Source of the DNA: an uncultured bacterium
GTDB lineage: Bacteria; Verrucomicrobiota; Verrucomicrobiia; CAIQCK01
Length of the DNA stretch: 64,000 nucleotides
Direction: 5' to 3'
Assembly: GCA_903870275.1 (NCBI GenBank)
Contig: CAIQCK010000121.1
Location: 192,461-256,460, forward strand
Shown here: positions 13,113 through 52,675 of the stretch, piece by piece
Layout of the letters: the number at the start of each line of letters is the position of its first letter
Position numbering within the stretch: position 1 is the first letter of the stretch
The notes under the pieces: model-generated
The model's input: only the letters and a program-made list of their open reading frames with translations
Database searches by the model: none
What the model was told of the DNA's origin: nothing
Position numbers and translations under genes: made by a program

Positions 13113-13871
13113 CTACCGGGCCAGGGCCGCCACGTTTTGCCACGCCATCGCCAGTCCGACGGTGAGGACGAAGCCGGCGAAGGCTTTTCGGATGGCGTGT
13201 TCGGAGAGCCGGCCTTTGGCGGCGACGCCGCCCGCCATGCCGGCCGTGGCCGCGGCCAGAAACGCCAGCGCCAGCCACCAGTCGAACTGAACGTAGCGAA
13301 GCTGGCCCGCAAGCCCCGCCAGCGAGTTCAGCGCGATGACCGCCAGCGACGTGCCGGTGGCCTTCTTGATGTCCAGCCCTCCGAAGATTGTCAACGCCGG
13401 CACGATCAGGAATCCGCCGCCAATGCCCAGAAAACCGGTCAGCGCGCCGACAATCAGGCCGATGAGGGCGCAACGCGCCGGCCCCTGACTTACCGTGCGC
13501 GCCGCTTCGCGCCGTTCCCGGAGCAGCGTCACGCCCACGACAAGCATGATGGCGGAGAACACCGTCAGCAGCGCCGGCTGCGAGACCAGATGCGTCAGCC
13601 GCGCTCCTCCATACGCGCCGATCACGCCTGTCACGGCGAACAGCAGCGCCACGCGCGCGTCGAAATGCCCGCGGCGGTATTGCATGACGCTGCCGGCAAG
13701 GCTCGTGCCGCCGACCACGACGAGCGCCATCGCCACCGCCTCCGAAGCCGGAACGCGCGCCACATAAACCAGCACCGGCAGCGTGATCATCGTGCCGCCG
13801 CTGCCGAGCAGTCCAAGCGCCACGCCGATCAAGCTCGCCAGAAGCAACCCTGCTGTTATCTCGGTGTTCAT
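13113..13871 (-). CDS. TauE/SafE (TSUP, DUF81) family anion exporter.
   Basis: Length is 252 aa with about 8 TM helices. It has the duplicated 'GxGGG' halves (LLGSGGTMITLPVL and FLGIGGGFLIVPAL) typical of the TSUP family. Confidence 0.85.
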   Translation of the reverse strand: MNTEITAGLLLASLIGVALGLLGSGGTMITLPVLVYVARVPASEAVAMALVVVGGTSLAGSVMQYRRGHFDARVALLFAVTGVIGAYGGARLTHLVSQPALLTVFSAIMLVVGVTLLRERREAARTVSQGPARCALIGLIVGALTGFLGIGGGFLIVPALTIFGGLDIKKATGTSLAVIALNSLAGLAGQLRYVQFDWWLALAFLAAATAGMAGGVAAKGRLSEHAIRKAFAGFVLTVGLAMAWQNVAALAR

Positions 13872-14021
13872 TTAAGACAGCCTGTGAAGGCGGCGGCATC
13901 ATCGCAATCCAGCGTTGGCCTGGCAATAGTCATCAGTGCGATGATAACGGGCTTGGCAGGGCGCAAATACGCGGAACATAATGCGGCGCGCGAAAGGGTC
14001 GTCAACCGACAACGAAACAGA
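13872..14021. promoter_or_regulatory. Divergent promoter region between TauE (-) and P1 (+). It contains a 9-bp inverted repeat.
   Basis: 'catcatcgca' at 13898-13907 pairs with 'tgcgatgat' at 13938-13946, with a 30-nt spacer. Confidence 0.3.
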
Positions 14022-17000: not shown

Positions 17001-17342
17001 CTCGACAATCCGGCGTTCGGCCTCGACAAAATGATCGGTTACACGCGCGCCGATCCGCCGTTGTGGACGCTGTGGTTGCCGGTGCGTGTTCGCGCGATGG
17101 TCAAGGCGGGCGACGCGCTTTTCGTCGCCGGCCCGCCTGATGTGCTCGACGCGGCCGATCCTTGTGCCGCGTTCGAGGGCCGCAAGGGCGCCAGCCTCGT
17201 CACCGTCTCCGCGGGCGACGGCAAGCAACTCGCCAAGCTCTCGCTGGACGCGCCGCCGGTTTTCGACGGCATGATCGCCGCCGCAGGGCGGTTGTTGATG
17301 GCACTCGAAAATGGAAATCTGATCTGTATTGCCAAAGAATGA
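14022..17342 (+). CDS. Paralog P1. Secreted multidomain protein: Sec signal, class-I SAM-MTase-fold domain, PQQ-like beta-propeller, conserved Cys motif, IQNPKSK linker, second PQQ-like beta-propeller, and a C-terminal region.
   Basis: The true start MMKSRLLLKPWKQMAVLALAFFASAGVSNA is in frame. The upstream 295 codons of the six-frame ORF are antisense to TauE. MTase motif I is 'LIVHVGCGDGTL'. The post-I acid is 'HGLDAD'. The motif II/III-like segment is 'LPYADNLVNLVVVSD'. PQQ-like blades include 'GKPLWTFVAGGRIDSPPTLVSGLVLFGSADGHVYCLRAADGALAWRF'. Confidence 0.8.
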   Translation: MMKSRLLLKPWKQMAVLALAFFASAGVSNAGETAVNPAVLANAREIQDATGVKGGLIVHVGCGDGTLTAALRTSDSFIVHGLDADAANIAAARQHIQSLGLYGPVSVETWSGKRLPYADNLVNLVVVSDESSVGRNEILRVLAPGGAALIVNSRSPGPDSRWVKPLPGDTDEWTHFLHDAGNNAVAHDARVAAPRSLQWSAPPLWLRSHETPSGVEAMVCGGGRLFYIFDEGLVGITDQRLPERWALLCRDAFNGKLLWRRPIEKWGWPEWAPEKFSTDWTTIVGGRTIVPDENQRRLVVDGDRLYATLSYRAPLSILDAATGKTLATVADTAPVRQIVAADGVALVYSHDAKPEVGPLRPKGKGMVNDAPQGALIAVRGATGQVLWRKSIPALRGLSLAIDGGRVVFQHGKTLSALDLKTGEQRWQAEIDEANVRTLVACAGAVVLLGQKGLETRDAATGSLLWQKEVPLARGLGSEGLYIVNGVVWPDMISVDDGQQPDLKSKSPNVLAVGYDLRTGEERKRIFVQNLRSPEHHHRCYRNKATDRFLISSLEGTEFLDLRGSEHTQNNFVRGACRLGMMPCNGMLYAPPDQCFCEPGSKLLGFKALAPERPLGAENEVSDAERLERGPAYGATIQNPKSKIQNSEDWPTYRHDAARHGSTPAAVATPLGETWCVKLGGGLTQPVAAEDRVYVASRDTHALHALELKTGKPLWTFVAGGRIDSPPTLVSGLVLFGSADGHVYCLRAADGALAWRFLAAPGERRIVVDDQIESAWPVHGSVLERDGVVYFTAGRSSYLDGGIRFYALEPATGKVLRQATLAGPFPDGKTTRDVSFYINGANNDVLVSEGGSIYMRQKRLTPALAEQTAGELSKMGEKDVGLHLFSTAGLLDASWYNRTFWMYSKRWPGFQLANQAPKSGQLLVVDGERTFGVQPFYRRNVHSPMFFPAKEGYLLFADRNATEPQIVGEEGARKPVVWLPQSDYERGGGRAVEKLDNPAFGLDKMIGYTRADPPLWTLWLPVRVRAMVKAGDALFVAGPPDVLDAADPCAAFEGRKGASLVTVSAGDGKQLAKLSLDAPPVFDGMIAAAGRLLMALENGNLICIAKE
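15926..15960 (+). repeat. In-frame heptanucleotide tandem repeat (aatccaa) of about 4.7 units inside P1. It encodes IQNPKSKIQNS.
   Basis: aatccaaaatccaaaatccaaaatccaaaattcag. Confidence 0.85.
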
Positions 17343-17349
17343 TCCAAGC

Positions 17350-20300
17350 ATGAACCGATTTGCGACCTGCACCCTCATCGCCGCGCTGGCTTGGGTTTCC
17401 GCCAACGCGGATCAACCGTCGGCGTCACAGATTCTCAAAGAGACCGGCATCCAAGGCGGCCTCGTCGTTCACGTCGGTTGCGGCGATGGCTCGTTGACGG
17501 CGGCATTGCGCGCGAACGACAGTTTTATTGTCCAGGGTCTCGATACCGACGCGAAGCATGTCGAGGCAGCGCGCAAGCACATCGCGTCGCTCGGCCTTTA
17601 CGGCAAGGTGACGGCGGAGCCGTGGGACGGCGGGCGGCTGCCTTACATCGAGAACTTCGTCAACCTCGTCGTGGTGAGCGAGGGGTGCCGTGTGGCGGAG
17701 GAGGAGATCATGCGCGTGCTTGCGCCCAACGGCGTGGCCATCGTCGGAAGCCGAAAGATCGTGAAGCCGCGGCCGAAGGAAATGGACGAGTGGACGCATT
17801 ACCTGCACGACCCCGGCAACAACGCCGTCGCGCATGATTCGCTGGTCGGCCCGCCGCGACAGTACCAGTGGATTGGCGGGCCACGCTGGTCGCGGCATCA
17901 CGACCACATGAGCAGTATCAGCGCAGTGGTCTCGGCCAATGGCCGGCTGTTCTACATCGTGGACGAAGGTCCGCGCGCCTCCATCCTGTTGCCGCCCCAA
18001 TGGTCGCTCGTCGCCCGCGATGCGTTCAACGGGACCATCCTCTGGACGCGTCCCATCCCGGAATGGAACACACAACTCTGGCCGCTCAAGAGCGGTCCCA
18101 ACCAGCTTCCGCGCAGGCTGGTGGCCGCCGGCGACCGCGTGTATGTCACGCTCGGCATTGACGCGCCGGTGAGCGAACTCGATGCAGCCACGGGCCGAAC
18201 GTTGCGCGCGTTCGAGGGCACGCAGGAAACCGACGAAATCCTGTTTTCCGACGGCATGCTGTTTCTGCTGGTGGCCGAAGCGCCGAACCAATGGAAGGAT
18301 TACCGGCCGAAGCACACCTACGTTTGGGACAACACAAACCGCGCGAACAAGGAATGGGCGTGGGACCGGCAGAGGCGTCACGTCATGGCTGTGGACGCCG
18401 GCAGCGGCCGCAAGCTCTGGAAATCCGAGCAACGCGTCGCGCCGCTGACGCTGGCGTTGGACACACAGCACGTGTTCTTCTACGACGGCGAGAAAACCGT
18501 CGCCTTGGACCGCAAGAGCGGCCAGCCGTTGTGGTCATCGGAACCGGTTCCTCACAAACAGCCGTTCCCGACCGGCTATGGGCCAACGCTGGTGGCGCAG
18601 GACGACGTGGTGCTGCTCTCCGTCGAGCGCTTGACCATGACCGCTTTCGCCGCAGCCACCGGCAAGAAGTTGTGGTCGGCCGAGCATCATCGCGGCGGCC
18701 ACGCTTCACCCGACGATTTGTTGGTCATTGACGGCCTCGTGTGGTCGGGCCGGATTGCGGATGGCAAGGACGATGGCGTTTTCACCGGTCGCGACCTGCG
18801 CACGGGCGAGGTCAAAAGCGAGTTCGCCTGCGACAACGTCAACTACTGGTTTCATCACCGCTGCTATCGCGCGAAGGCGACCGACCGGTTTATTCTGACC
18901 TCGCGCACGGGCACGGAGTTTGTGGATATCGCAGCGAAGCACTGGGACCTCAACCACTGGGTTCGCGGCGCGTGCCTCTACGGGGTGATGCCCGCCAACG
19001 GTCTGCTCTATGCGCCGCCGCATCCGTGCGCCTGCTACCTCGAATCGAAGCTGTCCGGTTTCAACGCACTCGCGCCGGCGCGCCCAACCATGGAACGTGG
19101 AGCGTCGAGCGTGGAGCGTCTCGAACGCGGCCCGGCCTTTGCGGAAATCCAAAACTCAAAAACCAAAATCCAAAATGCGGAAGATTGGCCCACCTACCGC
19201 AGCGACGCCGCCCGCAGCGGCTTTGCGAAAACGGATGTGCCGTCCGACCTCAAGCTTGCCTGGCAAGCGGACATCGGCGGCAAACTCAGCAGCGTCACGG
19301 TCGCGGACGGCCGGGTGTTCGTCGCGTCGGTGGACACGCACACGGTGCATGCGCTCGACGCGGCCACGGGCAAACCGGCGTGGACATTCACTGCCGGCGC
19401 ACGCGTGGATTCGCCGCCGACGATTTGGACGGGGCGCGTGCTCTTTGGCTCGGCCGATGGTTGGGTCTATTGTCTGCGCGCGGAGGACGGCGCGTTGGTG
19501 TGGCGGTTTCGCGCCGCGCCGGAAGAGCGGCGGATGATGGCCATTGAGCAGTTGGAATCGGTCTGGCCGGTTTCCGGCGCCGTGCTGGTGCGCGACGGTG
19601 TGGTGTTTTGCGTGGCCGGCCGCTCGGCGTTTCTCGACGGCGGCATGCGGCTGTTGCGGTTGGACGCGGCGACAGGCCGCGAATTATCCGAGACGGTCCT
19701 CAACGACCGCGACTTGTCCACTGGCGAGCCGCTGCAAAAATTCGTGCAACAACTCGACATGCCCACCGCCCTGCCGGATGTGCTTTCCTGCGACGGCCGC
19801 TCGGTATACATGCGCGCCCAGCGGTTTGACCTCAACGGCGCGCGGCAGGAGTTCGCGCCGATGGACCCCAAGGAACAAACGGGCGAGGGAGTGCATTTAT
19901 TCTCGCGCAGCGGCTTCCTCGACGACACCTGGTGGCACCGGTCCTTCTGGATGTATGGGCGGGGAGTGAAGTCCGGATACGGCGATTGGTTCAAGCCGGG
20001 AAACTACGCGCCGTCGGGCCGTTTGATGGTGTTCGACGATTTCGCGCTCTACAGCTTCGACCGCAAGCCGATGTCCATGTGCAACGCCTCGGTCTATGAT
20101 TACTATCTCTATGCCGCCGACAAACAGACCAAGGAGGAGGCCATCCAGCGCGTGACCGCCGCCAACGGCCGGATGAACGCTGCTTCGATCAAGAAGGTCG
20201 CATCCACTTCCGACTGGGCGCTGCGGAAAAAGTTCTCGCTCAGCGAACTCTCCGCCGCCGGCTTCAAGTGGGCGGAGGGCGATCTGCCGCTGCTGGCTCG

Positions 20301-21186
20301 CGGTATGGTGCTCGCCCGCAATACGGTTTTCATCGCCGGCCCACCGGACGTCGTGGACGAGGAAAAAGTCATTCAAAGCCCTGACGATCCGGCGATCAAG
20401 ATGAAGCAGGCCGAGCAGGTTGCCGCGCTCGAAGGACGGCGGGGTGCGCTGCTCTGGGCGTGTTCGGCCGCCGATGGCCGAAGACTCGCCGCATGGCAAC
20501 TCGACGCCGTGCCCGTGTTCGACGGCATGGCCGCGGCCCAGGGCAAACTGTTCTTTGCCACCATCGATGGCAAGGTCGTCTGCCTCGGTGGCAATGGGAC
20601 GCCGCTGAAACCCGCGCCCGACGCGAAACTCACGCCGCTGGACATCGGCGTGAAAACGACCGTGATCAACCTGCCCTCCAAGGCCGCCGACTTTGCCCGG
20701 CTCGACCAAGCGCGTGTTTTTGAGTCCGATATCGGTTACCGCGTCGCCACGGAGACGAAAAAGGTCGGTCTGGCGTTAAAAAAACTCGACGCGCCGTTGG
20801 ATGGCCGAGTGACGCTCAAGTGCAAGCTGCAGTTCACCAGTGTCGCGGGATTGCGCAACGGTTACCTCGCCTTCGGTGACGGCGCCGAGGAGGCGAACTT
20901 GGTGAAGTGCGGTCTGCGAGTGGCGATGAAGACCGCGGCGATCATTCAAGGGCCGCTCAGCAAGAACAAAGGCGCCACGACGCCGTATGCGGCAGACGCT
21001 GAGAAAGTTCACGAGCTGGTTGTAACCGTGGACCTCGCGTCGGGTAACGTTACCTTCCGAAGCGGTTCGGCAACCGTATCCGCCAAGCTGGCGCAGCCGA
21101 TGAAGCGCATCACTCACGTCGGCTACTGCACCAACAACGCCACGGTGGATTTTAGTCCGGTTGAAATCGGCGGCGCGGCGAAGTAG
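17350..21186 (+). CDS. Paralog P2. Secreted MTase-fold plus PQQ-like beta-propeller multidomain protein.
   Basis: The ATG at 17350 (MNRFATCTLIAALAWVSANA signal) lies 7 bp after the P1 stop. The TTG at 17329 reported by the ORF track is rejected. The segment 'GGLVVHVGCGDGSLTAAL...LPYIENFVNLVVVSEG' is collinear with P1, including 'HHRCYRAKATDRF...VRGACLYGVMPANGLLYAPPHPCACYLESKL' and 'IQNSKTKIQNAEDWPTYRSD'. Confidence 0.8.
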   Translation: MNRFATCTLIAALAWVSANADQPSASQILKETGIQGGLVVHVGCGDGSLTAALRANDSFIVQGLDTDAKHVEAARKHIASLGLYGKVTAEPWDGGRLPYIENFVNLVVVSEGCRVAEEEIMRVLAPNGVAIVGSRKIVKPRPKEMDEWTHYLHDPGNNAVAHDSLVGPPRQYQWIGGPRWSRHHDHMSSISAVVSANGRLFYIVDEGPRASILLPPQWSLVARDAFNGTILWTRPIPEWNTQLWPLKSGPNQLPRRLVAAGDRVYVTLGIDAPVSELDAATGRTLRAFEGTQETDEILFSDGMLFLLVAEAPNQWKDYRPKHTYVWDNTNRANKEWAWDRQRRHVMAVDAGSGRKLWKSEQRVAPLTLALDTQHVFFYDGEKTVALDRKSGQPLWSSEPVPHKQPFPTGYGPTLVAQDDVVLLSVERLTMTAFAAATGKKLWSAEHHRGGHASPDDLLVIDGLVWSGRIADGKDDGVFTGRDLRTGEVKSEFACDNVNYWFHHRCYRAKATDRFILTSRTGTEFVDIAAKHWDLNHWVRGACLYGVMPANGLLYAPPHPCACYLESKLSGFNALAPARPTMERGASSVERLERGPAFAEIQNSKTKIQNAEDWPTYRSDAARSGFAKTDVPSDLKLAWQADIGGKLSSVTVADGRVFVASVDTHTVHALDAATGKPAWTFTAGARVDSPPTIWTGRVLFGSADGWVYCLRAEDGALVWRFRAAPEERRMMAIEQLESVWPVSGAVLVRDGVVFCVAGRSAFLDGGMRLLRLDAATGRELSETVLNDRDLSTGEPLQKFVQQLDMPTALPDVLSCDGRSVYMRAQRFDLNGARQEFAPMDPKEQTGEGVHLFSRSGFLDDTWWHRSFWMYGRGVKSGYGDWFKPGNYAPSGRLMVFDDFALYSFDRKPMSMCNASVYDYYLYAADKQTKEEAIQRVTAANGRMNAASIKKVASTSDWALRKKFSLSELSAAGFKWAEGDLPLLARGMVLARNTVFIAGPPDVVDEEKVIQSPDDPAIKMKQAEQVAALEGRRGALLWACSAADGRRLAAWQLDAVPVFDGMAAAQGKLFFATIDGKVVCLGGNGTPLKPAPDAKLTPLDIGVKTTVINLPSKAADFARLDQARVFESDIGYRVATETKKVGLALKKLDAPLDGRVTLKCKLQFTSVAGLRNGYLAFGDGAEEANLVKCGLRVAMKTAAIIQGPLSKNKGATTPYAADAEKVHELVVTVDLASGNVTFRSGSATVSAKLAQPMKRITHVGYCTNNATVDFSPVEIGGAAK
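19146..19178 (+). repeat. Degenerate copy of the heptanucleotide repeat inside P2. It encodes IQNSKTKIQNA.
   Basis: aatccaa aactcaa aaaccaa aatccaa aatgcgg. Confidence 0.75.
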
Positions 21187-27729: not shown

Positions 27730-30700
27730 TCACTTTTCAAACTCGACGATCAGTTCCGGGCCTTTGCCGCTTTCGCGGGCGAAGTAGTTCACGCCGTCGG
27801 TGCTCACGGGGTCAATGGCGAGACTGAGTGTCTTCATGCCGTCGAACGAAAGATGTTTCAGCGGCACTTCGACGATCTGGTTGGAGTTGACGCGGCCGAT
27901 GTTGGCCAGCACCGTGCCGGGGGCGGGGCGGTTGGCGTAGGTGATGTCGTCTTCGCGCCACGGCTCGGTGACGAGGCAGATGTTGCCGCCGTTGACGGAT
28001 TCGTTGCCGGCGTTGATGAGGCGCAGCTTGGCGGAAACTGGTTTGCCGGGAACAGCGAGCGAGAACTTCAGGTAGGCGACCTGGTGGTGATCGTCGCCCA
28101 TCTTCTTGTCGCCGCCGTCCACCAGCAGCACGGGCACTTTGCCGTAGTTGGCGGTGGGCGCGAGCCGGATCACGTGGGCATCGGCAATCGCTTTGAAGAC
28201 CATGCGGTCGCCGCGGCCCAGATAATCCACCGTTATGTCGCGCGCGACCTCGACTGCGCCGTCGCGCCGGAGGAGTTGGACGCGGGCGGTGTATTGCGAC
28301 GACTGCGGTTTTCCGGCGACGGCAAACTTGCACTCGACTTCCGCTTTCTGGCCGACCAGCAGATTGATAGGCGTCTCGGCCGGCGTCACGGTGAAACCTT
28401 TCGGCGCGGCAATCCGCAGCGTGCCGGCGAAGTCACTGTCGGTCTGGTTCGAGAGTTGAAGCGTCGCGGTTTGTTCGGGTTTCGCGTTGTTCAACAAAAC
28501 CGGCGGCACGGTGACGGCCACGCCCAGCATCCGCTCGCGCAACACTTCCACCGTCTGGAGAATGGGCGCCTGCTCCGGCGCGGGCTGGCGCGTTTTTGGC
28601 ACGAACTCAATGAGCAGGCTGTCGTCAACTTCCACGCCGCTGAACTCCTTGACGAGGGCCTTGCGCAGTCCGCCGGCTTCCTTGACGACGTCGAAATCCT
28701 TGAGCGCGACTTTCTTCTGGAGCTTCACATCGAAGACGCGCTGGCCGGGCTTGGCGTCGTCCATCTCCGCGAAGCCGAGGCGGACAGTATAGCGGCCCGT
28801 GCCGTCGCCGGGATTCAGCAGCGGGATGTCGCAGGAAGCGATGCCGCGGCAGCCGAACGTGTAGAGCCACGGGCTGCGCGTGCCCTCGATGCGGACGAAA
28901 TCGGCGCTTTGAGCGAGATATTTGCCGATGCCTGGTTGCAGGGTTATACCGAGTTTGAATTGCAGCACCAAGCTGGGCGTTGCCGGCGCGGGACGCGGGT
29001 AGGCGAGCCAGAGTGTGCCGGCGTCATCGCGGCGGTCGCCCGGCGCGCCGAGGTTCAGGGCGAGATGTTTCACCGGCTTGGTGTCGCCCGCGAGACTGTA
29101 TTTGCCCCATGCGCGGTTTTCCTCGCGCGGCGCGAGCACCGTCGTGCAGACGATCGGGAACGGGCACATGCAACCGGAGCTGGCTTCGGGCATCATGACG
29201 AGGCCGTTGGCGGCGATGAAGTTGATCCAGCAACCGGGCCGCTGGCCGCCAAAGGTGGTCGTGCCGGAGTCGCCGATGAGATCGTAATAGCCGAGGTAGT
29301 AGGAGCGGAACAACATGACGTTGGCGCAGGCCGCCGGCGTGCCGCAGTGATGGCCGGGCCGCGCGAACTGCCACGGCTCGGTGCGGCCGGTGATGGGGTT
29401 GACGCGCGTGCGCTGCTCGCCGGTCTTGAGGTCGAACGCCCACGGCTCGGCGTGGAACGTGTCGCCGATGATGAGCGGGCGGACGCGGTAGGCGATGTTC
29501 TTCGACCAGAGCGGCGAGCCGTCGCTGGCGGCGAGCGCGATCACGCGGCGCTTGTCAAACTGGTTGGCGAAAAATTCCTTCCAGAAATGGCCGTCGGTAT
29601 AGACGCCGAAGAACACCAGCACGCCGTCGTGGACCATGCTGCCGAGCGTGCCCCAATGCGTGCCGCCGACGCAGCCGGTGAGGTCCATTTGTTTATTCCA
29701 GACCGTCCGGCCCGTCGCCAGATCGAGCGCCGTGACGCCGCGCATCGGCGACGGCCGCGCTGGTTTGATCACGCCGGGCGCGGATTTGGGGCCGCCGTCG
29801 GCGAAAAACACGCGGCCTCCGCCGATGGAGATGGTCGCGTCCTGAATGCCGCCGCCATACGTCCAACGGATGCGGCTGGTCGCCGTGTCGAAAGCGAACA
29901 GGATGTCGGAAACATTATTGGTCCGGCTGCCGCTGCCGACGAGGAGGCCGTCGGCGACGGCGACATAGCGCCAGGAGCGCGGCTTGCCGTCGGTGACCTT
30001 CGGCAACGCGTAGGTGGCCTTGATCGCGCCGGTGGCGATGTCGAGGCGCAGGCACTTGTTCGTCGTGGCGACATAGAAACTGCTCTCGTCCGCCGCGAGA
30101 TTGCTGGATTCGTCCGAGGTCCCCGCGCGGATGACGTTGGGAATTTTCCGGTCCCACAGTTTCAGTCCATTGTAAGCGTCGTAGGCGTTGACCGCGTTTT
30201 CGCCCTCAACGAGCATGACGCCGTTGACCGACAGCGGCGCGGCGGCGCGGCGATGCCGGCTGATCATTTGGAGCGGGCCGGGATCGCCGAACCAAAGCAA
30301 ACCGAGCGGGCACTTCACGAGCTTGTCGTCGCCGCAGGTGGTGTTGGCGGCGTCGGCATATTCGTGCGTCCACGCGCCCGCGCCGGGCAACGGCCCGCGT
30401 TTGAGCATGGCCCACGCGCCGTCCGTCTCCGTCACCTCCACGCCGGGAACGCCGCCGCTGGCGAACCACGCCCGCAATCCGGCCGGCGTGAGAGTGGGGA
30501 TGTCGCCCTTCGCCTCGGCGGGCTGGCCGAGCATGGCGACGCCGCCGCACGGTTTGAGGACGCGGAGGATTTCCTTCGCGGAACAATCGTTGAGCCGGCC
30601 GAGCAACGCGGTTTCGGAGACGATGAGGTTGGCAAAATAGGACGCATACGGCAGGTGATCCAGCGCGCCCTGGTCTACGGTGACGCGCGTGCCGTAAACA

Positions 30701-32574
30701 CCCGCGGCGTCGAGCGCCTTCCGCGCAGCGGCGACTTTTTGCGCGTCGGGCTCAATGCCGATGATCCTCAGCTCCGTGTGTTTGGCGAGTTCCAGCGCGA
30801 GCCGGCCGGTCTCGCAACCGAGCACGAGACAGAAACCGCGTTTGACGCCCGATTCGCGCGCGATGGTCCTCGCGCCGGCGGCGCAGACGGCGGTGATCCT
30901 GTCCTGCGGATAAGGCGACGTGTTCGTGGGCTCGGCGACGGCCACGGCGGGCTTGACCGCGCCCGGCGCGAAACAATAAATCGCCCCGGTGTCCGTGCTC
31001 ACGTAGAGCCGGCCGCCGGCGACGGTGAGACCCTTGGCTTTGCCGCTGACCTTCGCTTCCCAGAGTTTGATGCCGGTGTCCGCGTTGACGGCCATCACGT
31101 GGCTTGGGCCGCCGGCAAACAAAACCTCGCCCGCGAGAATCAGCGCGTCGGAGCAGTCGCACGGCAGGCGCCATTTCACGCACGACTTCATCTCCGCGTC
31201 GGCCTGCGCCAACTGTTTATCCATGCCTTGCAGCCGCTTCTCGACGCCGTCCAGTTTTTTGTTCACCTCGTTGAGCTTGGCTTCGTCCTCCTTCAGCATC
31301 TTCCCGGTTTCGTCCCGCGTGGCTTCGAGCGCGGCGCGCTGCGGATCGTCCGCCGGCAGCGAGGCGAGCTTGGCGTTGACGCTGGCCAGGGATGACTGCG
31401 CATGCGCGATCAGAATGGTCAGGCGCTTCTGGTCCTTGCGCGATGTGCCTGACTCGGCGTTGAGCGCGACGCGCTGGGTGTGGAGGTGGAACCGCAGGAC
31501 GCTGGCCTGCGGATAAATCTCCCGCTTCAACGCCATCACCGCGTTGCTGGTGCTCAGGTAGGCAAGGCCCTCGGTCATGATGACCTTGCGCGCGGCGAAC
31601 CACGCCGCCTCCACCCGGGTGGCGCTGTCGTAGCCGATGATCTCCTCGGTGCCGGTGTAGAGCTGGTTGTCGGCCAGCAACGCAAAGGTGCCGCCGATGG
31701 GCTTGTTGCCAAAAGTGGCCGCGAAGGTCGGACCTTTGATCTTGGGGTTGGCCGGGGCGGACAACGCGACCTCATACAGGCGGTGGCCGTCCTGCCGGTC
31801 GAACGCCGAGGGCGAAACGCGGCCTTGCGGGACGAACAGATTGGTGTTGCTGGCGAGCAGGTAGCCTTGCGGCGACATGCGGCCCTCGGTGGACTCGCCG
31901 CCCGTGTCGTTGCGCCAGAGCAACTGCCCGTCGCTGGCGCGCGCCGCCTCCACATACACGCCCTCCGCCGGAAAAATCCCCGCCCCGTAATACGCCACCC
32001 CGCCGTCCACCAGCACGCCCGTCCGCACCGGCCACATGGATATCATCCGGCCGTGGCCGAGCAACCGTTGATCGCCCGGACCGGGGCGGCGCTGCCAGAT
32101 CACCCTGCCGTCGCTGGCGGCGAGGCAATACACCTGGCCGTCGTCGGAGCCGACATACACGCGGTCGTCGCACACCGTCGGCGCGAGCCGCACCGGGCCG
32201 CCGGTGAAAAACGTCCACCGCACCCGCCCGCTCGCCGCGTCGAGGCAATACACCTTGTTGTCCGCCGACGAGCCGAAGTAGAGCGCGCCGCCCGCGACCA
32301 CCGTGTGGAAGGCGTCGTCGAACCGCACCCGCGGCAATTCCAGAAAACCCTCCACCGGCACGTCGCGCGGCGGTTCCCACGCCGGCGCGGGCGCCTGGCG
32401 TGAGCGGTAAACCCACGACTCCGCGAGCGGCGTGGCGAGCTTCTCCGGCGAGATGCCGCTGCGGGCCATGTCGTGCCGGTAGGTGGGCCAGTCATCGGCG
32501 CTAGCTGCGGCCAGGGCGGCGGCGGCAAGGACCAGGACAACCGGCGTTCGTAACCGCAAAGGCAACCGTTTCAT
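27730..32574 (-). CDS. Paralog P3 (1614 aa). Secreted protein with a permuted architecture: PQQ-like beta-propeller, coiled coil, degenerate MTase-fold domain, second beta-propeller region, and a C-terminal CBM96/DNRLRE-like beta-sandwich.
   Basis: The start MKRLPLRLRTPVVLVLAAAALAAASA precedes 'DDWPTYRHDMARSGIS', which is the same junction motif as in P1, P2 and P4. Blades read 'RVRWTFFTGGPVRLAPTVCDDRVYVGSDDGQVYCLAASDGRVIWQ'. The coiled coil is 'LEATRDETGKMLKEDEAKLNEVNKKLDGVEKRLQGMDKQLAQADAEMK'. The MTase-fold is 'FCLVLGCETGRLAL...LPYASYFANLIVSE'. The C-terminus is 'DAHVIRLAPTANYGKVPVLLVDGG...VAYLKFSL...AKLRLINAG...ICLVTEPWREDDITYANRP'. Confidence 0.8.
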   Translation of the reverse strand: MKRLPLRLRTPVVLVLAAAALAAASADDWPTYRHDMARSGISPEKLATPLAESWVYRSRQAPAPAWEPPRDVPVEGFLELPRVRFDDAFHTVVAGGALYFGSSADNKVYCLDAASGRVRWTFFTGGPVRLAPTVCDDRVYVGSDDGQVYCLAASDGRVIWQRRPGPGDQRLLGHGRMISMWPVRTGVLVDGGVAYYGAGIFPAEGVYVEAARASDGQLLWRNDTGGESTEGRMSPQGYLLASNTNLFVPQGRVSPSAFDRQDGHRLYEVALSAPANPKIKGPTFAATFGNKPIGGTFALLADNQLYTGTEEIIGYDSATRVEAAWFAARKVIMTEGLAYLSTSNAVMALKREIYPQASVLRFHLHTQRVALNAESGTSRKDQKRLTILIAHAQSSLASVNAKLASLPADDPQRAALEATRDETGKMLKEDEAKLNEVNKKLDGVEKRLQGMDKQLAQADAEMKSCVKWRLPCDCSDALILAGEVLFAGGPSHVMAVNADTGIKLWEAKVSGKAKGLTVAGGRLYVSTDTGAIYCFAPGAVKPAVAVAEPTNTSPYPQDRITAVCAAGARTIARESGVKRGFCLVLGCETGRLALELAKHTELRIIGIEPDAQKVAAARKALDAAGVYGTRVTVDQGALDHLPYASYFANLIVSETALLGRLNDCSAKEILRVLKPCGGVAMLGQPAEAKGDIPTLTPAGLRAWFASGGVPGVEVTETDGAWAMLKRGPLPGAGAWTHEYADAANTTCGDDKLVKCPLGLLWFGDPGPLQMISRHRRAAAPLSVNGVMLVEGENAVNAYDAYNGLKLWDRKIPNVIRAGTSDESSNLAADESSFYVATTNKCLRLDIATGAIKATYALPKVTDGKPRSWRYVAVADGLLVGSGSRTNNVSDILFAFDTATSRIRWTYGGGIQDATISIGGGRVFFADGGPKSAPGVIKPARPSPMRGVTALDLATGRTVWNKQMDLTGCVGGTHWGTLGSMVHDGVLVFFGVYTDGHFWKEFFANQFDKRRVIALAASDGSPLWSKNIAYRVRPLIIGDTFHAEPWAFDLKTGEQRTRVNPITGRTEPWQFARPGHHCGTPAACANVMLFRSYYLGYYDLIGDSGTTTFGGQRPGCWINFIAANGLVMMPEASSGCMCPFPIVCTTVLAPREENRAWGKYSLAGDTKPVKHLALNLGAPGDRRDDAGTLWLAYPRPAPATPSLVLQFKLGITLQPGIGKYLAQSADFVRIEGTRSPWLYTFGCRGIASCDIPLLNPGDGTGRYTVRLGFAEMDDAKPGQRVFDVKLQKKVALKDFDVVKEAGGLRKALVKEFSGVEVDDSLLIEFVPKTRQPAPEQAPILQTVEVLRERMLGVAVTVPPVLLNNAKPEQTATLQLSNQTDSDFAGTLRIAAPKGFTVTPAETPINLLVGQKAEVECKFAVAGKPQSSQYTARVQLLRRDGAVEVARDITVDYLGRGDRMVFKAIADAHVIRLAPTANYGKVPVLLVDGGDKKMGDDHHQVAYLKFSLAVPGKPVSAKLRLINAGNESVNGGNICLVTEPWREDDITYANRPAPGTVLANIGRVNSNQIVEVPLKHLSFDGMKTLSLAIDPVSTDGVNYFARESGKGPELIVEFEK

Positions 32575-32715
32575 ATTCACGACTCCAATACTCCGCCACT
32601 CCATCACTCCAATACTTCACCACTCCACATCGCAGCCCGGCCGGCGATGGCGCCCGCCATGGAGCGTCACATCCATCGTCCGGTATTGTCATCGAGCGTA
32701 GGCAACGCCCGGACC

Positions 32716-32835
32716 GAAGGCGAGGTTGAAATGCCTGTCGCCAAAGCCTGCCGGATTTCAACGCGGAGGCGCAGAGGACGCAGAGGTTCTGCAAGAGCCT
32801 TTGCGCTTCTCGGCGTTCTCTGCGTCTCTGCGGTT
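32716..32835. promoter_or_regulatory. Conserved non-coding element, copy A, upstream of P3 and downstream of the response regulator.
   Basis: It shares its termini with copy B at 37130-37324. Left end: 'gaaggcgaggttgaaatgcc' versus 'gaaggcgaggttgaaatggcc'. Right end: 'gagcctttgcgcttctcggcgttctctgcg' versus 'gagcctttacgtttctccgcgttctctgcg'. Confidence 0.5.
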
Positions 32836-32871
32836 GACTCCGTCTCCATCCGGCTGGCCACGCGCGGTTGC

Positions 32872-33396
32872 TTAGGATTCCGAAAGGGGGATGAACTGCC
32901 GGTTCTCGTGCCACGGTTTGTTCGCCAGCTCCGCGAGCATTTCTTCTGCCAGCGACGTGACAAACTCCGTCGTTGTTGATGCCGCCGCGCCAGCAGCCGC
33001 ATCGCGTTGGTCAAACAGTTCGTCCACCCGCCTCAACAAGTCGGGCAGTTGATTGGTCTTGGAGAAGTAACCATCCGCTCCCACCATGAAACCTTCGACT
33101 CTGTAACTGGCCGGGTCCAGCGCCGACATGATCCAGATCGGCACATGCCCCATGGCCGGGTTGCCCCGAATGGAACGGCAGACTTCCAAGCCCGGCATTT
33201 TCGGCAGCATCAGGTCCAGCACGATCAAGTCCGGGCGGCAACGGGAAGCTTGATCCAGCCCGCTCTCGCCATCGGCGGCGATGACCGTTTCATGTCCTTT
33301 TTGTTGCAGGCGATACTTTAAGATCGCCGCGAAGTCCTGTTCATCCTCGATGATGAGCACCCGCTTCCGTCCCATGTCTTGGCCTAGTCCATTCAT
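32872..33396 (-). CDS. Stand-alone response-regulator receiver domain (CheY-like).
   Basis: 'KRVLIIEDEQDF...PDLIVLDLMLPKMPGLEVCRSIR...PIWIMSALD...GADGYFSKT'. There is no output domain. The start is ambiguous among 33447, 33396 and 33375. Confidence 0.7.
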   Translation of the reverse strand: MNGLGQDMGRKRVLIIEDEQDFAAILKYRLQQKGHETVIAADGESGLDQASRCRPDLIVLDLMLPKMPGLEVCRSIRGNPAMGHVPIWIMSALDPASYRVEGFMVGADGYFSKTNQLPDLLRRVDELFDQRDAAAGAAASTTTEFVTSLAEEMLAELANKPWHENRQFIPLSES

Positions 33397-33447
33397 GCCG
33401 CGAATCAAACACGGATTCGTAACGAGACGGCGGCGTTTGAGTGACAA

Positions 33448-33920
33448 GTGGGTAAAAAGCAGGTAGGGACGGCGCGCTGCGCCGTCCGCGCATGGTTCGC
33501 CGATGACAACAACCTTCGCCCCTACCTTTTCAGCCAGAATCCCAACGGGATTCTAGCACTCAGCCCAGGGTTGCGAGGTTGCGGCAACTTTGGGCTGAGT
33601 GATGTTGCCCCGTTGGGGCAAATGCGGCGACTCGCGGCGTTTGCTGTAGCGGCGGTCTCTGCCCCCGAAAGCTTTCGGGGCTGACCGCCGGATAACTGGG
33701 AGGGGCGACATTCTTGTCGCCCGATGATGATTCGGCGACAGGAATGTCGCCGCTCCCAGTTCATTACGATTTGATTTCGGTGGTAGGGCGCGACCGTCGG
33801 GCGCGCCGCATCGTTGTTTCGGCCGGCCCAGCGGTCCGGCCCTACCTTTCGGCGGTCAGAGACCGCCGCTACAGGGCGCGATCCATCGTTTCAGAAACGA
33901 TCCTCAAAACACGGAGGAAT
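33448..33920. other. Hairpin-dense non-coding spacer between P4 and the response regulator, carrying at least 8 strong palindromes.
   Basis: Hairpins found: 33467-33487 ggacggcgc-gct-gcgccgtcc; 33558-33601 cactcagcccagggttgc/gcaactttgggctgagtg; 33604-33620 ttgcccc-gtt-ggggcaa; 33663-33680 ccccgaaagctttcgggg; a 24-bp inverted repeat at 33698-33721 / 33734-33757 in which each arm is itself a hairpin; 33848-33866 cggcggtc-aga-gaccgccg; 33876-33892 atcgttt-cag-aaacgat. Confidence 0.6.
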
Positions 33921-36900
33921 TTATTCTGACTTGCCGAAGCAGAGGGCCTTGCCGTTTTGCAGGGTGAGAAAGACGTGCTGGCCGGCGAGCGCGAGGCTGT
34001 CATAGACCGGTGGCATTTCCAGCGGATACTCCGCCACGATCCGGCCGTCTTTGGTCGAAAGCAGCGCGAGAAATCCGCTGACGGCGCCGGCGTCGCACAC
34101 GGTTCCCGCCACGACCACTGCGTTGTCGCACAACGACATCGCCTCGGCCTGGTGATTGGCCGGCATCGCCTGCCGCCACGCGTAATCTTCCCGCGCCAGC
34201 TTCCCGGCACCCGCGGTCTTCGCGCGCTCCATGGCGTAGCACGAGCGCGACTTGCTCTCATAGCCAAAGACGGTGTTCCCGTTCCAACAGAAGATTTCCG
34301 CGGTGGCGCGGCCGAACTTTTGCCCGCCGGATCGGCGTGTGCCCATGCGGGTCCACGAGCCGTCCATCAACGCTTCCAGCGGCGCGTCGCGCTCGCCCTT
34401 GGCCGCGACATCGCCCTCGCCGGTCTTGGGGTCGAATTGAAGATGATGGAGTTTGATGCTTCCGTCGCGCGCGACGAGCAGATCGTTTTCGCGGACGGGG
34501 CCGGGACCGACCTCCCTGGCCCAGAGCTGCCGGCCGCTGGCGGGATCGAGCGCGCAGACGGCCAGGCCGCCGTCGGTTTCCGACGAACGGCCGGCCGACG
34601 CGTAGAGCACGCCCTCGTGGACCAGCACCGATCCGGGCACCGGCCAGACGGACTCCATCGCGCCGAACGCCACCATGCGGCGCTCCCAAGGCGCGATGCG
34701 CGCGCGCCACGCCAGTTGGCCGTCGCGGGCGCGAAGCGCGTAAACCCATCCGTCGTGCGAGCCGATCAGGCAGAGGTCGCCGTGGATCGTGGGCGGCGAA
34801 TCGAGCCGCCCGCCCACCGTGGCGCGCCAGAGCGGCTTGCCGGTGGCGGCGTTGAGCGCGACGACTTGAGCGGTGTCCGTGGCGGCTGCGAAAACCATTC
34901 CGTTGGCGACGACGGGCGCGCTGAGGCAGGAGGTGAGCTGCGCCTGCCACGCCGCCGCGAGCGGACCGGTGGGAGGACGAGCGGCTTCGCGCTGCCAGAG
35001 GAGTTTGAGTTTTTCAGGGATCGCGCTCTGGGTGGCGCCGCTGCGTTCGCCGTCGTGGCGGTAGAGGGGCCAGTCTACTGAATTTTGGATTTTAGATTTT
35101 GGATTTTGGATTTCGGAATTAGAAGTTGGGAGTTGGGGGGTGGAATTTTGGATTTGCTTCGCAGGTCTCGCAGACTCGGCTTTGGATTTTAGATTTTGGA
35201 TTTCGGATGTTGGCGATTGGCGATTGGAGATTTGAGATTTGGAATCTGGAATTTGAAATTTCGCACCGAAGGCGGGGCCGGGCTCGATGGGACGCGGCTT
35301 TTCAAATTCGCCGGCCGCGGGCGGGTCGCCGCTGGGGCCGAACGCAACGAAGCCCGGCACCTGGCCCGGCGCGCACCGGCAGAAGTTCTGGCCGGTGAAA
35401 AACATGCCGAGCGCCGGGGTCGCGCCTTCGATGCAAGCGCCGCGGGCCGCGGCATAACTGATATGCGTGGCGCTGCCCTTGAACGTCGCGCCCTCCGGCG
35501 ATGGCGCCAGCTCCAGGTAGGAGCAGCCGCGGCTGGCGGTGACGTAGTTGCCGACGACGGCGGCCGGCGTGCACATCGGCGAGTCCATGGAGACCGGCAA
35601 CAGGCCTTTCACCTCGCCCGTCCTGGGATCGTATTTTTTGCTTTCGTGCCAGAGCAGGCCGTCCACCAGCGGCGTCCAGAATCGGCCGGCCGGTTTGATC
35701 TCCCACAACACCTTGCCGTCGGCGGCGGAGAGGATGGAGATCGTCTTCGCCTTGGGCCGGGCGACGGAGAGCATGCCGAGACCCGCGCAGTTGAGATTCA
35801 TCGGCGTCGCCGGCTCGAACTGCGTGTGCTCGACGCGCCATCGCTCGCGGCCGGTTTGCAAATCCACCGCGACGATCCGCTGGCCGGTCGGCGGGTTGCC
35901 CGATTGCAGCAGCAGATAAACGACGCCGTCGGCGGTGACCATCTCCTGCGCCGGCACCGGCAGGGACCATTTCGCCGCGCCGCTGGCCGCGTCGAAGGCT
36001 TCGATCGCGCCCGCCGCGCCGGTCTTGTTCACCCACGGCGCCCAGATGACGCCGCGCTCGAACTGCTTGAGTTCCTCCTTCGCTTCCCAGCCGGAAGAGA
36101 TCAGCACGTTCTGCGAGAGGAGCAGGCGGACGGTCTGGTATTTCACCGGGCAACTGACCGCGACCGCGCCGCTGGCGGCGTCGAGTCCGACGAGGCGGTC
36201 CTTTTTGTAAACATAAACGCGGCGGTCGTCGGCGACGATGGGGGCGAGGTTGAAGGCGTTGAGGGCCTGGCCGTTGTCGAGCGTCTCGCAGTTCAGTTTC
36301 CAGAGCGGCAGGCCGTTGAACGCGTCGCGCGCGGTGACGTATTGCTCCTGCTTGTGTTTGGCGAACGACGCCGGCGCGAGGTTTTCTAGCTCCGTGGTGC
36401 TGAGCGTGAAACAGCGGCCGTTGGCGATGACCCAGCCGCGGCAGGCGGCCCACATGTTGAAGTTCATCGGCAGCCCGTCCTGCCAGCGGAGGCCGGAGGG
36501 AAACTTCACGACGCGGTCGGCCGAGACGCGGTTGCCGTCGGCGCTGTGCGCCGGTTGCGGCCAGTCGTCCATTTCCGGCGGACGCGGCTTGACCGAGCGG
36601 GTCCATCGGCCGGCCTTGCGGACGCAGATCGCGCCGCCGGGCGCGACGATGCGCTCGACCTCCGCGGTCGTCAGGCCTTGCGCGCTCAGGGCGGGCCAGT
36701 CCTCGATCACCACGAGATTGGCGAGGTCGCGGAGGTAAGGAAGGTGAACTAAAGGCATCTTCTCTACCATCGCTTTTCCGGCGATCCCCCTCGTCTCGAT
36801 GGCTTTGCGCGCGCGATCGAGCGCGGCGTCGTCGAGCGCCAGCCCGTGCACGAGGAGGTTGCTGTCGGCGGCGAGGTCGGCGGTGAGGGCTGGGTTGTTC

Positions 36901-37067
36901 TTGGAGCCGCAGCCGAGATGAACACAGAGGCCGATCTTGACGCCCGCGACTTCGAGGATTTGGTCCGCTTGCGTTTTGGCGGGCGCAGCGTTGGCATTGA
37001 GAGTCCACGCGAGAATCAGTCCAATGACGGACAGCAGTGACAGGAATTTTTGAGTCATGCGCATCAT
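33921..37067 (-). CDS. Paralog P4 (1048 aa). Secreted MTase-fold (degenerate motif I) plus PQQ-like beta-propeller multidomain protein, with an expanded IQNxKSK linker.
   Basis: Signal MMRMTQKFLSLLSVIGLILAWTLNANA. MTase fold 'GLCVHLGCGSKNNPALTADLA...LVHGLALDD...LPYLRDLANLVVIED'. The linker 'IQNLKSK...IQNSTPQLPTSNSEIQNPKSKIQNSVDWPLYRHDGERSG' is followed by the C-terminal propeller 'GKPLWRATVGGRLDSPPTIHGDLCLIGSHDGWVYALRARDGQLAWR'. Confidence 0.8.
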   Translation of the reverse strand: MMRMTQKFLSLLSVIGLILAWTLNANAAPAKTQADQILEVAGVKIGLCVHLGCGSKNNPALTADLAADSNLLVHGLALDDAALDRARKAIETRGIAGKAMVEKMPLVHLPYLRDLANLVVIEDWPALSAQGLTTAEVERIVAPGGAICVRKAGRWTRSVKPRPPEMDDWPQPAHSADGNRVSADRVVKFPSGLRWQDGLPMNFNMWAACRGWVIANGRCFTLSTTELENLAPASFAKHKQEQYVTARDAFNGLPLWKLNCETLDNGQALNAFNLAPIVADDRRVYVYKKDRLVGLDAASGAVAVSCPVKYQTVRLLLSQNVLISSGWEAKEELKQFERGVIWAPWVNKTGAAGAIEAFDAASGAAKWSLPVPAQEMVTADGVVYLLLQSGNPPTGQRIVAVDLQTGRERWRVEHTQFEPATPMNLNCAGLGMLSVARPKAKTISILSAADGKVLWEIKPAGRFWTPLVDGLLWHESKKYDPRTGEVKGLLPVSMDSPMCTPAAVVGNYVTASRGCSYLELAPSPEGATFKGSATHISYAAARGACIEGATPALGMFFTGQNFCRCAPGQVPGFVAFGPSGDPPAAGEFEKPRPIEPGPAFGAKFQIPDSKSQISNRQSPTSEIQNLKSKAESARPAKQIQNSTPQLPTSNSEIQNPKSKIQNSVDWPLYRHDGERSGATQSAIPEKLKLLWQREAARPPTGPLAAAWQAQLTSCLSAPVVANGMVFAAATDTAQVVALNAATGKPLWRATVGGRLDSPPTIHGDLCLIGSHDGWVYALRARDGQLAWRARIAPWERRMVAFGAMESVWPVPGSVLVHEGVLYASAGRSSETDGGLAVCALDPASGRQLWAREVGPGPVRENDLLVARDGSIKLHHLQFDPKTGEGDVAAKGERDAPLEALMDGSWTRMGTRRSGGQKFGRATAEIFCWNGNTVFGYESKSRSCYAMERAKTAGAGKLAREDYAWRQAMPANHQAEAMSLCDNAVVVAGTVCDAGAVSGFLALLSTKDGRIVAEYPLEMPPVYDSLALAGQHVFLTLQNGKALCFGKSE
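35080..35270 (-). repeat. Expanded, interrupted array of the heptanucleotide repeat (ttggatt on +, aatccaa on -) inside P4.
   Basis: On the + strand: gaattttggattttagattttggattttggatttcgg ... ggaattttggatttgc ... ctttggattttagattttggatttcggatgttgg ... gagatttgagatttggaatctggaatttgaaattt. Confidence 0.8.
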
Positions 37068-37129
37068 GTTCTCCGCTGAAGTTGTTTCCAAGATCCAGTT
37101 TCGGCGGCGAGCGTAGCAGCGCGCGGATG

Positions 37130-37324
37130 GAAGGCGAGGTTGAAATGGCCGACAGTGCACCCGTTTACGACCGCACCGAACTTCGCGTCTTCGCGCCTTC
37201 CCTGTTGAATTTTTCCGTCATGGGATTTTGAACAGGGAAGGCGCGAGGACGCGAAGACAGTCGGGGCGCTGAGGCCCCTTCCACATTCAAAACGAGCCTT
37301 TACGTTTCTCCGCGTTCTCTGCGG
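37130..37324. promoter_or_regulatory. Conserved non-coding element, copy B, in the divergent region between P4 (-) and the ROK kinase operon (+). It contains a perfect 17-bp inverted repeat.
   Basis: It has the same termini as copy A. Internally, 'gcgccttccctgttgaa' (37193-37209) pairs with 'ttgaacagggaaggcgc' (37228-37244), separated by an 18-nt loop. Confidence 0.5.
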
Positions 37325-37500
37325 TGAATTTCCGTATCCTCACCATCAGCGATCCATTCTTGGTTTTGGCCGGAGTCGGTGGTAATATAAATTTCTTGTC
37401 GCGCCGCTTCGACGCGACAGGTTGACGTTTTGCTGCGGGAAGCCGGTTTTGAGGAACGAGGCAAACTTGGTTGGTGTTGCGAGACTGAGGAGGACGAACG

Positions 37501-38508
37501 ATGAGTCACGGGAAGCAAAAACAGCATGTGGTCGGTGTGGACCTGGGCGGCACGAAAATCCTGGCGGCGGTGTTTGACGGGAACTTTCGCGTGTTGAGCC
37601 GTGAAAAGAAAAACACGCGGCCGGAGTTGGGCGTGGATGGCGTCATCGGGCGCGTGGCCGAGTGCGTCAACGAGGCGCTGGCGGCGGCGGCGGTCCCGCA
37701 CGCGGCCATCGCGGCCATCGGCATCGGCATCCCGGGGATGGTGGATCGGGAGCGGGGCCTGGTGCGCATTGCGCCGAATCTGAACTGGCATGAACTGCCG
37801 CTGGCGAGGCTGGCGGAGCGGCGGTTGCATTTTCCGGCGGCGCTGATCAACGACGTTCAGGCGGGCACGCTGGCGGTGAAGCATCAGGGCGCGGGCCGCA
37901 AGTTGCAAAACTTTGTCTGCATGTTCATCGGCACCGGCATCGGCGGCGGGATCGTTTTGAACAGCGAGCTTTATCGCGGCTCGAGCGGCATGAGCGGCGA
38001 GATCGGCCACATGGTGGTCGTGCCGGAGGACGGGCCGAAGTGCGGTTGCGGCAACCGCGGCTGTCTCGAGTCGGTCGCCAGCCGCAGCGCCATCGTGCGC
38101 CGCGTCGTGGCGGCGATCGAGAAGGGGCGCAAGAGCGTCGTGTCGGATTTGTGCGACGGCGACATGACGCGTGTCCGCAGCCGGATTCTGGCGGAGGCTT
38201 ACCGTGAGGGCGACAAGCTGGTGCGCCGGATCGTGGATGAGGCCGCCGACTACATCGGCATCGGCGCGGCGAATTTGATCAACATCCTCAACCCGCAGGC
38301 CGTCATTCTCGGCGGCGGGTTGATGCAGGCGCTCGGCGAGAAACTGTTGCCGCGCATCCGCAAGTCGGCGATGGCTCACGTCATCGGGGCCAATCCGGAG
38401 CGGGTGAAGATTCTCGACTCCGGTCTCGGTGACGACGCGGGCATCATCGGCGCCGGTCTTGCGGCGCGGGCCAAGGTGGCGACAGCGAAAGAACGATTTT
38501 TTCGCTGA
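37501..38508 (+). CDS. ROK-family sugar kinase (glucokinase-like).
   Basis: 'VVGVDLGGTKILAAV' phosphate-1 motif. ROK Zn motif 'CGCGNRGCLE'. 'ILGGGL'. Confidence 0.85.
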   Translation: MSHGKQKQHVVGVDLGGTKILAAVFDGNFRVLSREKKNTRPELGVDGVIGRVAECVNEALAAAAVPHAAIAAIGIGIPGMVDRERGLVRIAPNLNWHELPLARLAERRLHFPAALINDVQAGTLAVKHQGAGRKLQNFVCMFIGTGIGGGIVLNSELYRGSSGMSGEIGHMVVVPEDGPKCGCGNRGCLESVASRSAIVRRVVAAIEKGRKSVVSDLCDGDMTRVRSRILAEAYREGDKLVRRIVDEAADYIGIGAANLINILNPQAVILGGGLMQALGEKLLPRIRKSAMAHVIGANPERVKILDSGLGDDAGIIGAGLAARAKVATAKERFFR

Positions 38509-52246: not shown

Positions 52247-52415
52247 GTGCGCGGTCACTGCCGAGTGCCGCAAACACGCTTAAATCATCGGCGGGAAACG
52301 CGATGATCCATTTCAGTCGTCCCTCCGGGACGGATTGATTTCGAGGATCGTGTTCCTGGCGTTGAAGGGTCTGTTGCCCAAATCGTCTTAGCCGCGGAGC
52401 GGCGCCAGATCGTAG

Positions 52416-52675
52416 CCCACGGCGCGAGCCGTGGGTTTCGTGACGCAGAACGAAAGCCCCGGCAGGGGCGAAAGAAATCATACATCGGTGAGGTTTTCTG
52501 CCGCCCCGACGGGGCTTATGTTTTTCGGGCCACTATTCCCACGGCTTGCGCCGTGGGCTATTTTCTGGCGCGCCTCCGGCGCTCTCCTCCAGAACTGGCT
52601 TGTTCTTGAGCAAACAGAACATTTGGGCAACACGCCCTAAAACGCCGGGCTAATGTCAGCCGCTCCTATGGAGCG
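52416..52675. repeat. Symmetric set of paired hairpins in the 455-bp spacer, including a Rho-independent-terminator-like hairpin followed by a T-run.
   Basis: X1 52416-52435 cccacggc-gcga-gccgtggg. Y1 52457-52468 cccc-ggca-gggg. Y2 52503-52515 gcccc-gac-ggggc, followed by ttatgttttt. X2 52538-52557 cccacggc-ttgc-gccgtggg. 52659-52675 ccgctcc-tatg-gagcgg. Confidence 0.6.

Follow-up and report, generated by a model that had tools for sequence, protein, structure and literature searches.

Two homologous blocks upstream of P3 and P4 in a verrucomicrobial genome: probable copies of the control region of a former P4-P3 operon

In the 64 kb stretch of DNA analysed here (the window), two related non-coding stretches lie upstream of the genes P3 (copy A) and P4 (copy B). 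We conclude that these are probably paralogues, both descended from the promoter-proximal control region of an ancestral operon, P4-P3, that was later split. Copy B would still stand where that region first lay, in the interval between P4 and the divergently transcribed ROK kinase gene, and copy A would be a derived duplicate before P3, which would have been cut off from P4 by a 1.3 kb insert. Common to both is a core of 36-38 nt, TTTCA[A/G][C/T]CTCGCC-(17-19 nt)-TACGCT, which is kept before whichever gene leads; a 5' box recognised in a preliminary description of this DNA is the upstream end of that core. The relevant genes and blocks are as follows.

27730..32574, - strand: P3, 1614 aa, secreted, with PQQ-like propeller, methyltransferase, malectin and CBM96 domains
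33921..37064, - strand: P4, 1047 aa, with a methyltransferase-like domain and PQQ-like propellers
32872..33375, - strand: stand-alone receiver gene, 167 aa, Pfam Response_reg, within the 1.3 kb between P4 and P3
from 37501, divergent from P4: ROK kinase gene, then ppx and ppk
13137-17342 and 17329-21186, + strand: P1 and P2, tandem paralogues with the same Pfam make-up
37081..37150, - strand: full proximal block of copy B (R1 match 72.6 bits, E 9.5e-22)
37110..37146, - strand: core of copy B, gene-sense TTTCAACCTCGCC-17 nt-TACGCT, the ancestral site upstream of P4, holding most of the 5' box
32666..32736, - strand: full proximal block of copy A (R1 match 70.4 bits, E 4.7e-21)
32695..32732, - strand: core of copy A, gene-sense TTTCAACCTCGCC-18 nt-TACGCT, the putative derived copy upstream of P3

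Extent and homology of the two copies

Both boxes of the preliminary description are real. The 5' box, GAAGGCGAGGTTGAAATG[C/G]C, is exact at 32716-32735 and at 37130-37149 (+ strand), and no third occurrence was found in the 64 kb window even at 3 mismatches, against a chance expectation of 0.01. The 3' box, TTCTC[G/C]GCGTTCTCTGCG, occurs in the window only at 32807-32824 and 37306-37323; here the chance expectation was 0.22, with at least 2 matches in 3 of 100 shuffles. Likewise, the hairpin reported for copy A, GTTGAAATGCC...GGATTTCAAC, was recovered at 32725-32761. The homology extends ~50 nt past the 5' box in the direction of the genes, to ~32666 and ~37081, and takes in an invariant TACGCT. 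Beyond the box, the gene-strand (-) alignment of A and B reads CATTTCAACCTCGCCTTC..TCCG.GCG.TG.CTACGCTCG....ACyGGA...TGGA. A sequence-only model of this proximal block (R1) returned exactly two sites in the window (E ~1e-21), with the next best match at E = 0.33. A shared cis-acting region upstream of both P3 and P4, as first proposed, is thus supported.

Other parts of that description needed revision. The interiors of the copies had been called variable; the alignment shows that they are homologous between the copies, though interrupted by large indels. Each copy had been placed about 140-270 nt upstream of its start codon, whereas copy B begins just 66 nt from the called start codon of P4. 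Two short + strand ORFs that translate the box as EGEVEM had rightly been dismissed as artefacts: in the relative L082 the frame stops three codons past the box, a 34-aa + strand ORF was called by one gene caller only, and genome-wide matches to EGEVEM are unrelated coding genes.

Nor does the element belong to the paralogue family as a whole. Searching the window with R1 gave no copy upstream of P1 or P2, and P3 and P4 share the block by way of their former single operon. Moreover, identity between the P3 and P4 proteins is just 23-33%, and one is a circular permutation of the other, so their near-identical upstream DNA is not a leftover of an old gene duplication.

With regard to the proteins themselves, residues 28-225 of P3 align with 664-853 of P4, and residues 568-1124 of P3 with 33-542 of P4; the malectin and CBM96 domains of P3 are additions beyond the P4-like part. 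P4 also contains a 7-nt (21-nt) tandem array in frame (window 35070-35263). It expands a linker that in relatives is the 12-aa KIQNPKSKIQNP; in L081 the linker measures ~32 aa, against ~62 aa in the window. This linker is a fast-varying low-complexity link between the two halves of P4.

Gene order in relatives and the splitting of the operon

Contigs of the same strain, reached via an identical ROK protein, carry an identical element. Six informative loci (L081, L082, L083, L084, L087 and L088) were obtained through homologues of P4 and P3, and an R1 search of the relatives' loci gave one match per expected position in every locus. At two further loci, L085 and L086, whose P4 homologues are at most 63% identical, there was neither a core nor synteny.

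In four of the relatives (L082, L083, L084 and L088, the last grouped with L083 on P3 identity) P4 is 81-87% identical to that of the window. All four have the order ROK, a spacer of 187-207 nt, P4, a gap of 24-27 nt, and P3; the P0005 gene table gives the same ROK-P4-P3 order, again with P4 and P3 24-27 nt apart. A gap this short implies that P4 and P3 form one operon, in which the core occurs once. The sole copy of the block in these loci lies upstream of P4 and ends ~42 nt before an ATG preceded by GGAG. L081 is closer (P4 94-96% identical) and has both copies of the element, the counterpart of the copy A proximal block standing upstream of P3 at 8745-8814.

At the junction of P4 and P3, the window has 1.3 kb of hairpin repeats plus the receiver gene, and P3 has a core copy of its own. 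L081 holds a different 4.6 kb island there (4277-8933), with a DNA methylase, HATPase_c_3 and a vsr-like gene. In L087 (GCA_016222825; 4765-5000) P4 has been cleanly deleted and the block stands directly before P3; downstream of it come a short scar and then the old junction, CAGGATCGCTT-ATGAAAC. The close relatives thus form a natural series in the dismantling of an operon: intact P4-P3, split with two cores, and P3 alone.

The L081 island is itself flanked by two ~28-nt copies of CTCTGCGATCTCTGCG..GGCGG, at ~4366-4395 and ~8681-8708, which suggests site-specific integration at a hairpin. In the window, P4 and the receiver gene are separated by a spacer (33450-33900) dense with long, partly nested palindromes with arms of 27-34 nt; an outer inverted repeat, CTGTAGCGGCGGTCTCTG / CAGAGACCGCCGCTACAG, surrounds two inner hairpins.

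These gene orders also bear on the suggestion that the element is a target of the receiver's partner, that is, an operator for a DNA-binding partner of the adjacent receiver protein. The receiver gene does end 37 nt from copy A. However, it is cargo of the window lineage, absent from L081, L082, L083, L084, L087 and L088 (6 of 6 relatives with the core), and its protein has no DNA-binding domain by Pfam. We therefore regard an operator of this kind as extremely improbable.

How the second copy arose may be read from a trace at the end of P4:

33878..33920, - strand: what is left of the ancestral P4-P3 junction, namely the old Shine-Dalgarno GAGGATCG followed by a dead P3 start, CTGAAACGAT, that adjoins GGATCGC

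The window sequence that immediately follows the P4 stop is GAGGATCGTTT-CTGAAACGAT, as against GAGGATCGCTT-ATGAAAC(G)A at the P4-P3 junction of L082-L084. The P3 start codon has changed from ATG to CTG, and the dead start serves as a marker of the rearrangement breakpoint. At this join stands ATGGATCGC, a sequence that also immediately precedes the copy B insertion. When the two flanks of the 1.1 kb cargo are rejoined, they give a copy B-like sequence. Together, the remnant join, the ATGGATCGC match and the rejoining flanks favour a tandem duplication. Such a duplication would have spanned everything between a point upstream of P4 and the opening codons of P3, after which the second P4 would have been lost and the cargo inserted. 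This route is tentative and depends on a match of 7-9 nt. We also considered a transposon-style target duplication of ATGAAACG; tandem duplication fits the remnant join and the cargo flanks better.

The core and P3 may also have travelled together. Copy A and the block of L087 share derived states, namely GGCGTTGC, GGACGAT and the CATC..CG.C scar. In the P3 tree, the clade of the window and L081 lies next to the clade of L087, which holds P0123, P0124 and P0126 and is separate; by ROK and PPX, L087 lies next to L082. This conflict between the P3 tree and ROK/PPX implies replacement by recombination, in which a core-P3 module would have moved between lineages, and it weighs against the preferred reading. 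Within the P3 gene itself, a sliding-window comparison showed no recombination breakpoint.

The distal halves: hairpins and tandem arrays

Upstream of the proximal blocks, each copy continues into a distal half built of hairpins and short tandem arrays.

37153..37346, - strand: distal part of copy B, a ~194 nt insertion of the window lineage, boundaries +/-5 nt
37294-37323, - strand: 3' box of copy B, inside the distal insertion
37181-37209 and 37228-37256, - strand: inverted-repeat arms of the 29-bp hairpin of copy B
37181-37200, - strand: 8-nt tandem array of copy B (TRF)
32752..32842, - strand: distal part of copy A, an imperfect hairpin with 34-nt arms formed from two inverted short tandem arrays
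32752-32785 and 32809-32842, - strand: inverted repeat of copy A, 76% complementary
32795-32824, - strand: 3' box of copy A, one arm of the hairpin
32761-32786 (period 9) and 32802-32832 (period 8), - strand: tandem arrays of copy A (TRF)
32578..32628, - strand: 8/24-nt tandem array (TRF) of gene-sense TGGAGTG units with a Shine-Dalgarno-like GGAG, directly before the P3 start codon

TRF resolves the 3' box and its partner into inverted tandem arrays with units of 8-9 nt, which are confined to the window lineage. Neither the 3' box nor the hairpins were found in the ROK-P4 spacers of L082, L083, L084 and L088, all of which lack the copy B insertion. Even between the window and L081, the distal part of copy B differs by an 8-nt indel and substitutions, although neutral sites are 0.92 identical; the 3' box is thus a rapidly changing sequence. 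We conclude that the hairpin arrays are REP-like, lineage-specific and probably dispensable, and that they were probably copied along with the core; the hairpins would be at most insulating or RNA-stabilising. The array ahead of the P3 start codon, which has a shorter counterpart in L081, seems to have arisen by slippage from the old junction GTGTTTTGAGGATCG.

It was proposed that the element as a whole is a cis-regulatory RNA leader. On such a reading a transcribed riboswitch or attenuator would precede both P3 and P4, and the hairpins would be regulatory. Long hairpins are indeed present in both copies, copy B folds much better than its shuffles (z = -4.9), and three mutually complementary segments of copy B could in principle form alternative hairpins. 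The core, too, contains an inverted repeat, CA[A/G][C/T]...[A/G][C/T]TG, with symmetric variants (CAGC...GCTG, CAAC...GTTG and CAGT...ACTG) that include two symmetric double changes. However, hairpins and 3' box are missing at all orthologous loci outside the window lineage, and the hairpins differ by indels among relatives that are 94-96% identical. An Rfam search of 32400-37600, at gathering and at permissive thresholds, returned only miRNA-hairpin models, whose scores of 23-31 bits fall short of their thresholds (58-90). Turning to the core, its consensus fold is weak (-3.9 kcal/mol, with a positive covariation term) and its spacing varies by 2 nt. Double changes affect 2 of 7 pairs of the inner helix in a sample of nine sequences from about five lineages, and 16 of 500 shuffles reached at least the observed covariation score, a proportion that by the tool's calibration lies within the range of related structure-free sequences. 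We regard an RNA leader as improbable.

The same distal halves might instead point to a REP- or MITE-like mobile repeat, inserted upstream of each gene in a separate event. Several observations fit this: the distal ~194 nt of copy B are an insertion relative to L082-L088 and are made of inverted short tandem arrays, a third hairpin of the CGCAGAG type follows P4 in L081 with no core adjacent, and the neighbouring spacer is full of other long palindromes. Against it, the P4 site of every syntenic relative has the proximal half with the 5' box as ancestral sequence, and there are just two copies in 64 kb. Moreover, the element has no terminal inverted repeats, since neither end is an inverted copy of the other. 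With the 5' box as the query there were 60 matches in a genome collection, all chance or coding (e.g. EGEVEM in ferredoxin-like genes), and 14 in a metagenome collection, all unrelated; there was thus no homologous copy in these collections, which seemingly do not include this organism's contigs, so that such an absence carries little weight. We consider a mobile repeat unlikely for the element as a whole; at most the distal half may be of this kind.

The core as a putative promoter

The core upstream of P4 is kept in every syntenic relative examined that has P4 (L081, L082, L083, L084 and L088). The sequences compared number nine, from about five lineages. The two segments of the core are invariant, and the length of the spacer between them varies. 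TACGCT lies ~42 nt before the ATG of P4, which is preceded by a GGAG Shine-Dalgarno. Conservation falls off on both sides. Identity between the window and the relatives is 0.76-0.94 in the core, the highest within the ROK-P4 spacer, compared with 0.54-0.80 in the next 45 nt and 0.43-0.53 on the ROK side of the spacer. Four-fold degenerate sites of P4 and P3 are 0.55-0.78 identical, the saturation baseline being ~0.45. The copy A core is 0.86 identical to the copy B core and 0.89 identical to the core before P3 in L087.

A sceptical reading is that copy A is a functionless relic of segmental duplication, with P3 read through from P4, the receiver gene or the island genes. P4, P3 and all the genes between them share one strand, and no terminator-like sites occur between the receiver gene and P3. 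Moreover, identity between A and B is ~0.8 across the alignment, which could be compatible with neutral decay after duplication, an 18-base identical run being unremarkable at that level; copy A is ~0.93 identical between the window and L081, equal to the neutral baseline of 0.92. Against this, the 0.89 identity of the A-type core between the window and L087 exceeds that of the next 45 nt (0.62) and of P3 four-fold sites (0.75). The core has also survived two different cargo insertions and one deletion of P4, and in the window strong hairpins stand between the upstream genes and the core. We consider it unlikely that copy A is a relic.

What the core does is suggested by its layout. We infer that it is a promoter of a non-sigma-70 type, or an activator site, and propose TTCAACCTCGCC and TACGCT as its functional segments. 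TACGCT would serve as the -10-like hexamer, with the form TAnnnT; it retains T1, A2 and T6, three key -10 positions. In turn, TTCAnnCTCGCC would occupy the -35 position, bound by an alternative sigma factor or an activator. A tolerance of 17-19 nt in the spacing fits a -35/-10 arrangement better than it fits a folded RNA or a dimer operator. The proximal block of copy B would accordingly comprise the core and the first ~30 nt downstream of it, which is probably the start of the transcript. With a core before each gene, P3 and P4 could stay under common control despite their lost contiguity.

None of the promoter patterns compared accounts for the core. A sigma-70 scan (TTGACA-(16-18 nt)-TATAAT, at least 9 of 12 matches) found none in either copy region, where the -35 position reads CTCGCC. 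For sigma-54 (GG-N10-GC, TGGCAC-N5-TTGC), alignment by eye gave GG-N10-TTGC in A copies only, the GG position being CA or AA in copy B and L082. The ECF pattern (AAC at -35 and CGT at -10, 16-17 nt apart) is not conserved in the alignment: TCAACC becomes TCAGCC or TCAGTC in L082, L083, L084 and L088, and the -10 counterpart is CGCT or CGTT. Alignment by eye likewise showed no conserved Bacteroidetes-type or HrpL-type pattern, and no intrinsic terminator (GC-rich stem plus T-run) overlaps either copy; the distal hairpin of copy A has no T-run after it and is not terminator-like. Since the canonical sigma patterns are not conserved, we read the core as needing an alternative sigma factor or an activator. 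The distant homologue L086 has a canonical promoter, TTGACA-17-CAGAAT. Searching the literature for promoter motifs of Verrucomicrobia yielded only a paper on ECF41, whose motif does not match; the core motif itself is undescribed.

A bolder version, which we hold to be doubtful, would make the core the site of a dedicated putative sigma factor or activator that controls the secreted PQQ-propeller/methyltransferase/malectin pair in this verrucomicrobial group. The changes in the inner repeat would then reflect co-evolution or a functional hairpin, and the core with P3 would be a portable module recombining within the core. The core offers a short conserved motif with no sigma-70 fit, directly testable, from a phylum whose promoters are barely characterised.

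Several known systems invite comparison. Activator-dependent and alternative-sigma promoters (ECF-type, class II) resemble the core in their bipartite motif, a spacer of 17-19 nt, a TAnnnT-like hexamer and the lack of a sigma-70 -35 element; unlike ECF promoters, the core has A replaced by G within the hallmark AAC in four relatives. The distal halves recall REP/BIME palindromes in being long, imperfect intergenic hairpins that are lineage-specific and indel-prone, with several more nearby. They differ in being made of inverted 8-9 nt tandem arrays and in that three or four instances were seen. Acido-Lenti-1 RNA (RF01687) is also hairpin-shaped and present in the same window, yet it does not match the element. 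Its two matches above the gathering score, at 52390-52435 (-) and 52538-52583 (+) with 51.7 and 56.5 bits, share one intergenic spacer, where they stand in inverted orientation with ~100 nt between them; a look-alike at 33564-33620, an unrelated palindrome, scores 20 bits against a threshold of 37.

The splitting of operons by insertion, with the distal gene gaining or duplicating a promoter, is a general phenomenon of operon evolution. The window resembles it in that a two-gene operon with a gap of 24-27 nt has been interrupted and the distal gene has its own copy of the promoter region. We thus see ordinary operon remodelling here, neither a new RNA class nor a new mechanism. Where insertion sequences carry outward-reading promoters, the element supplies the promoter; P3 of the window instead has a copy of the native region.
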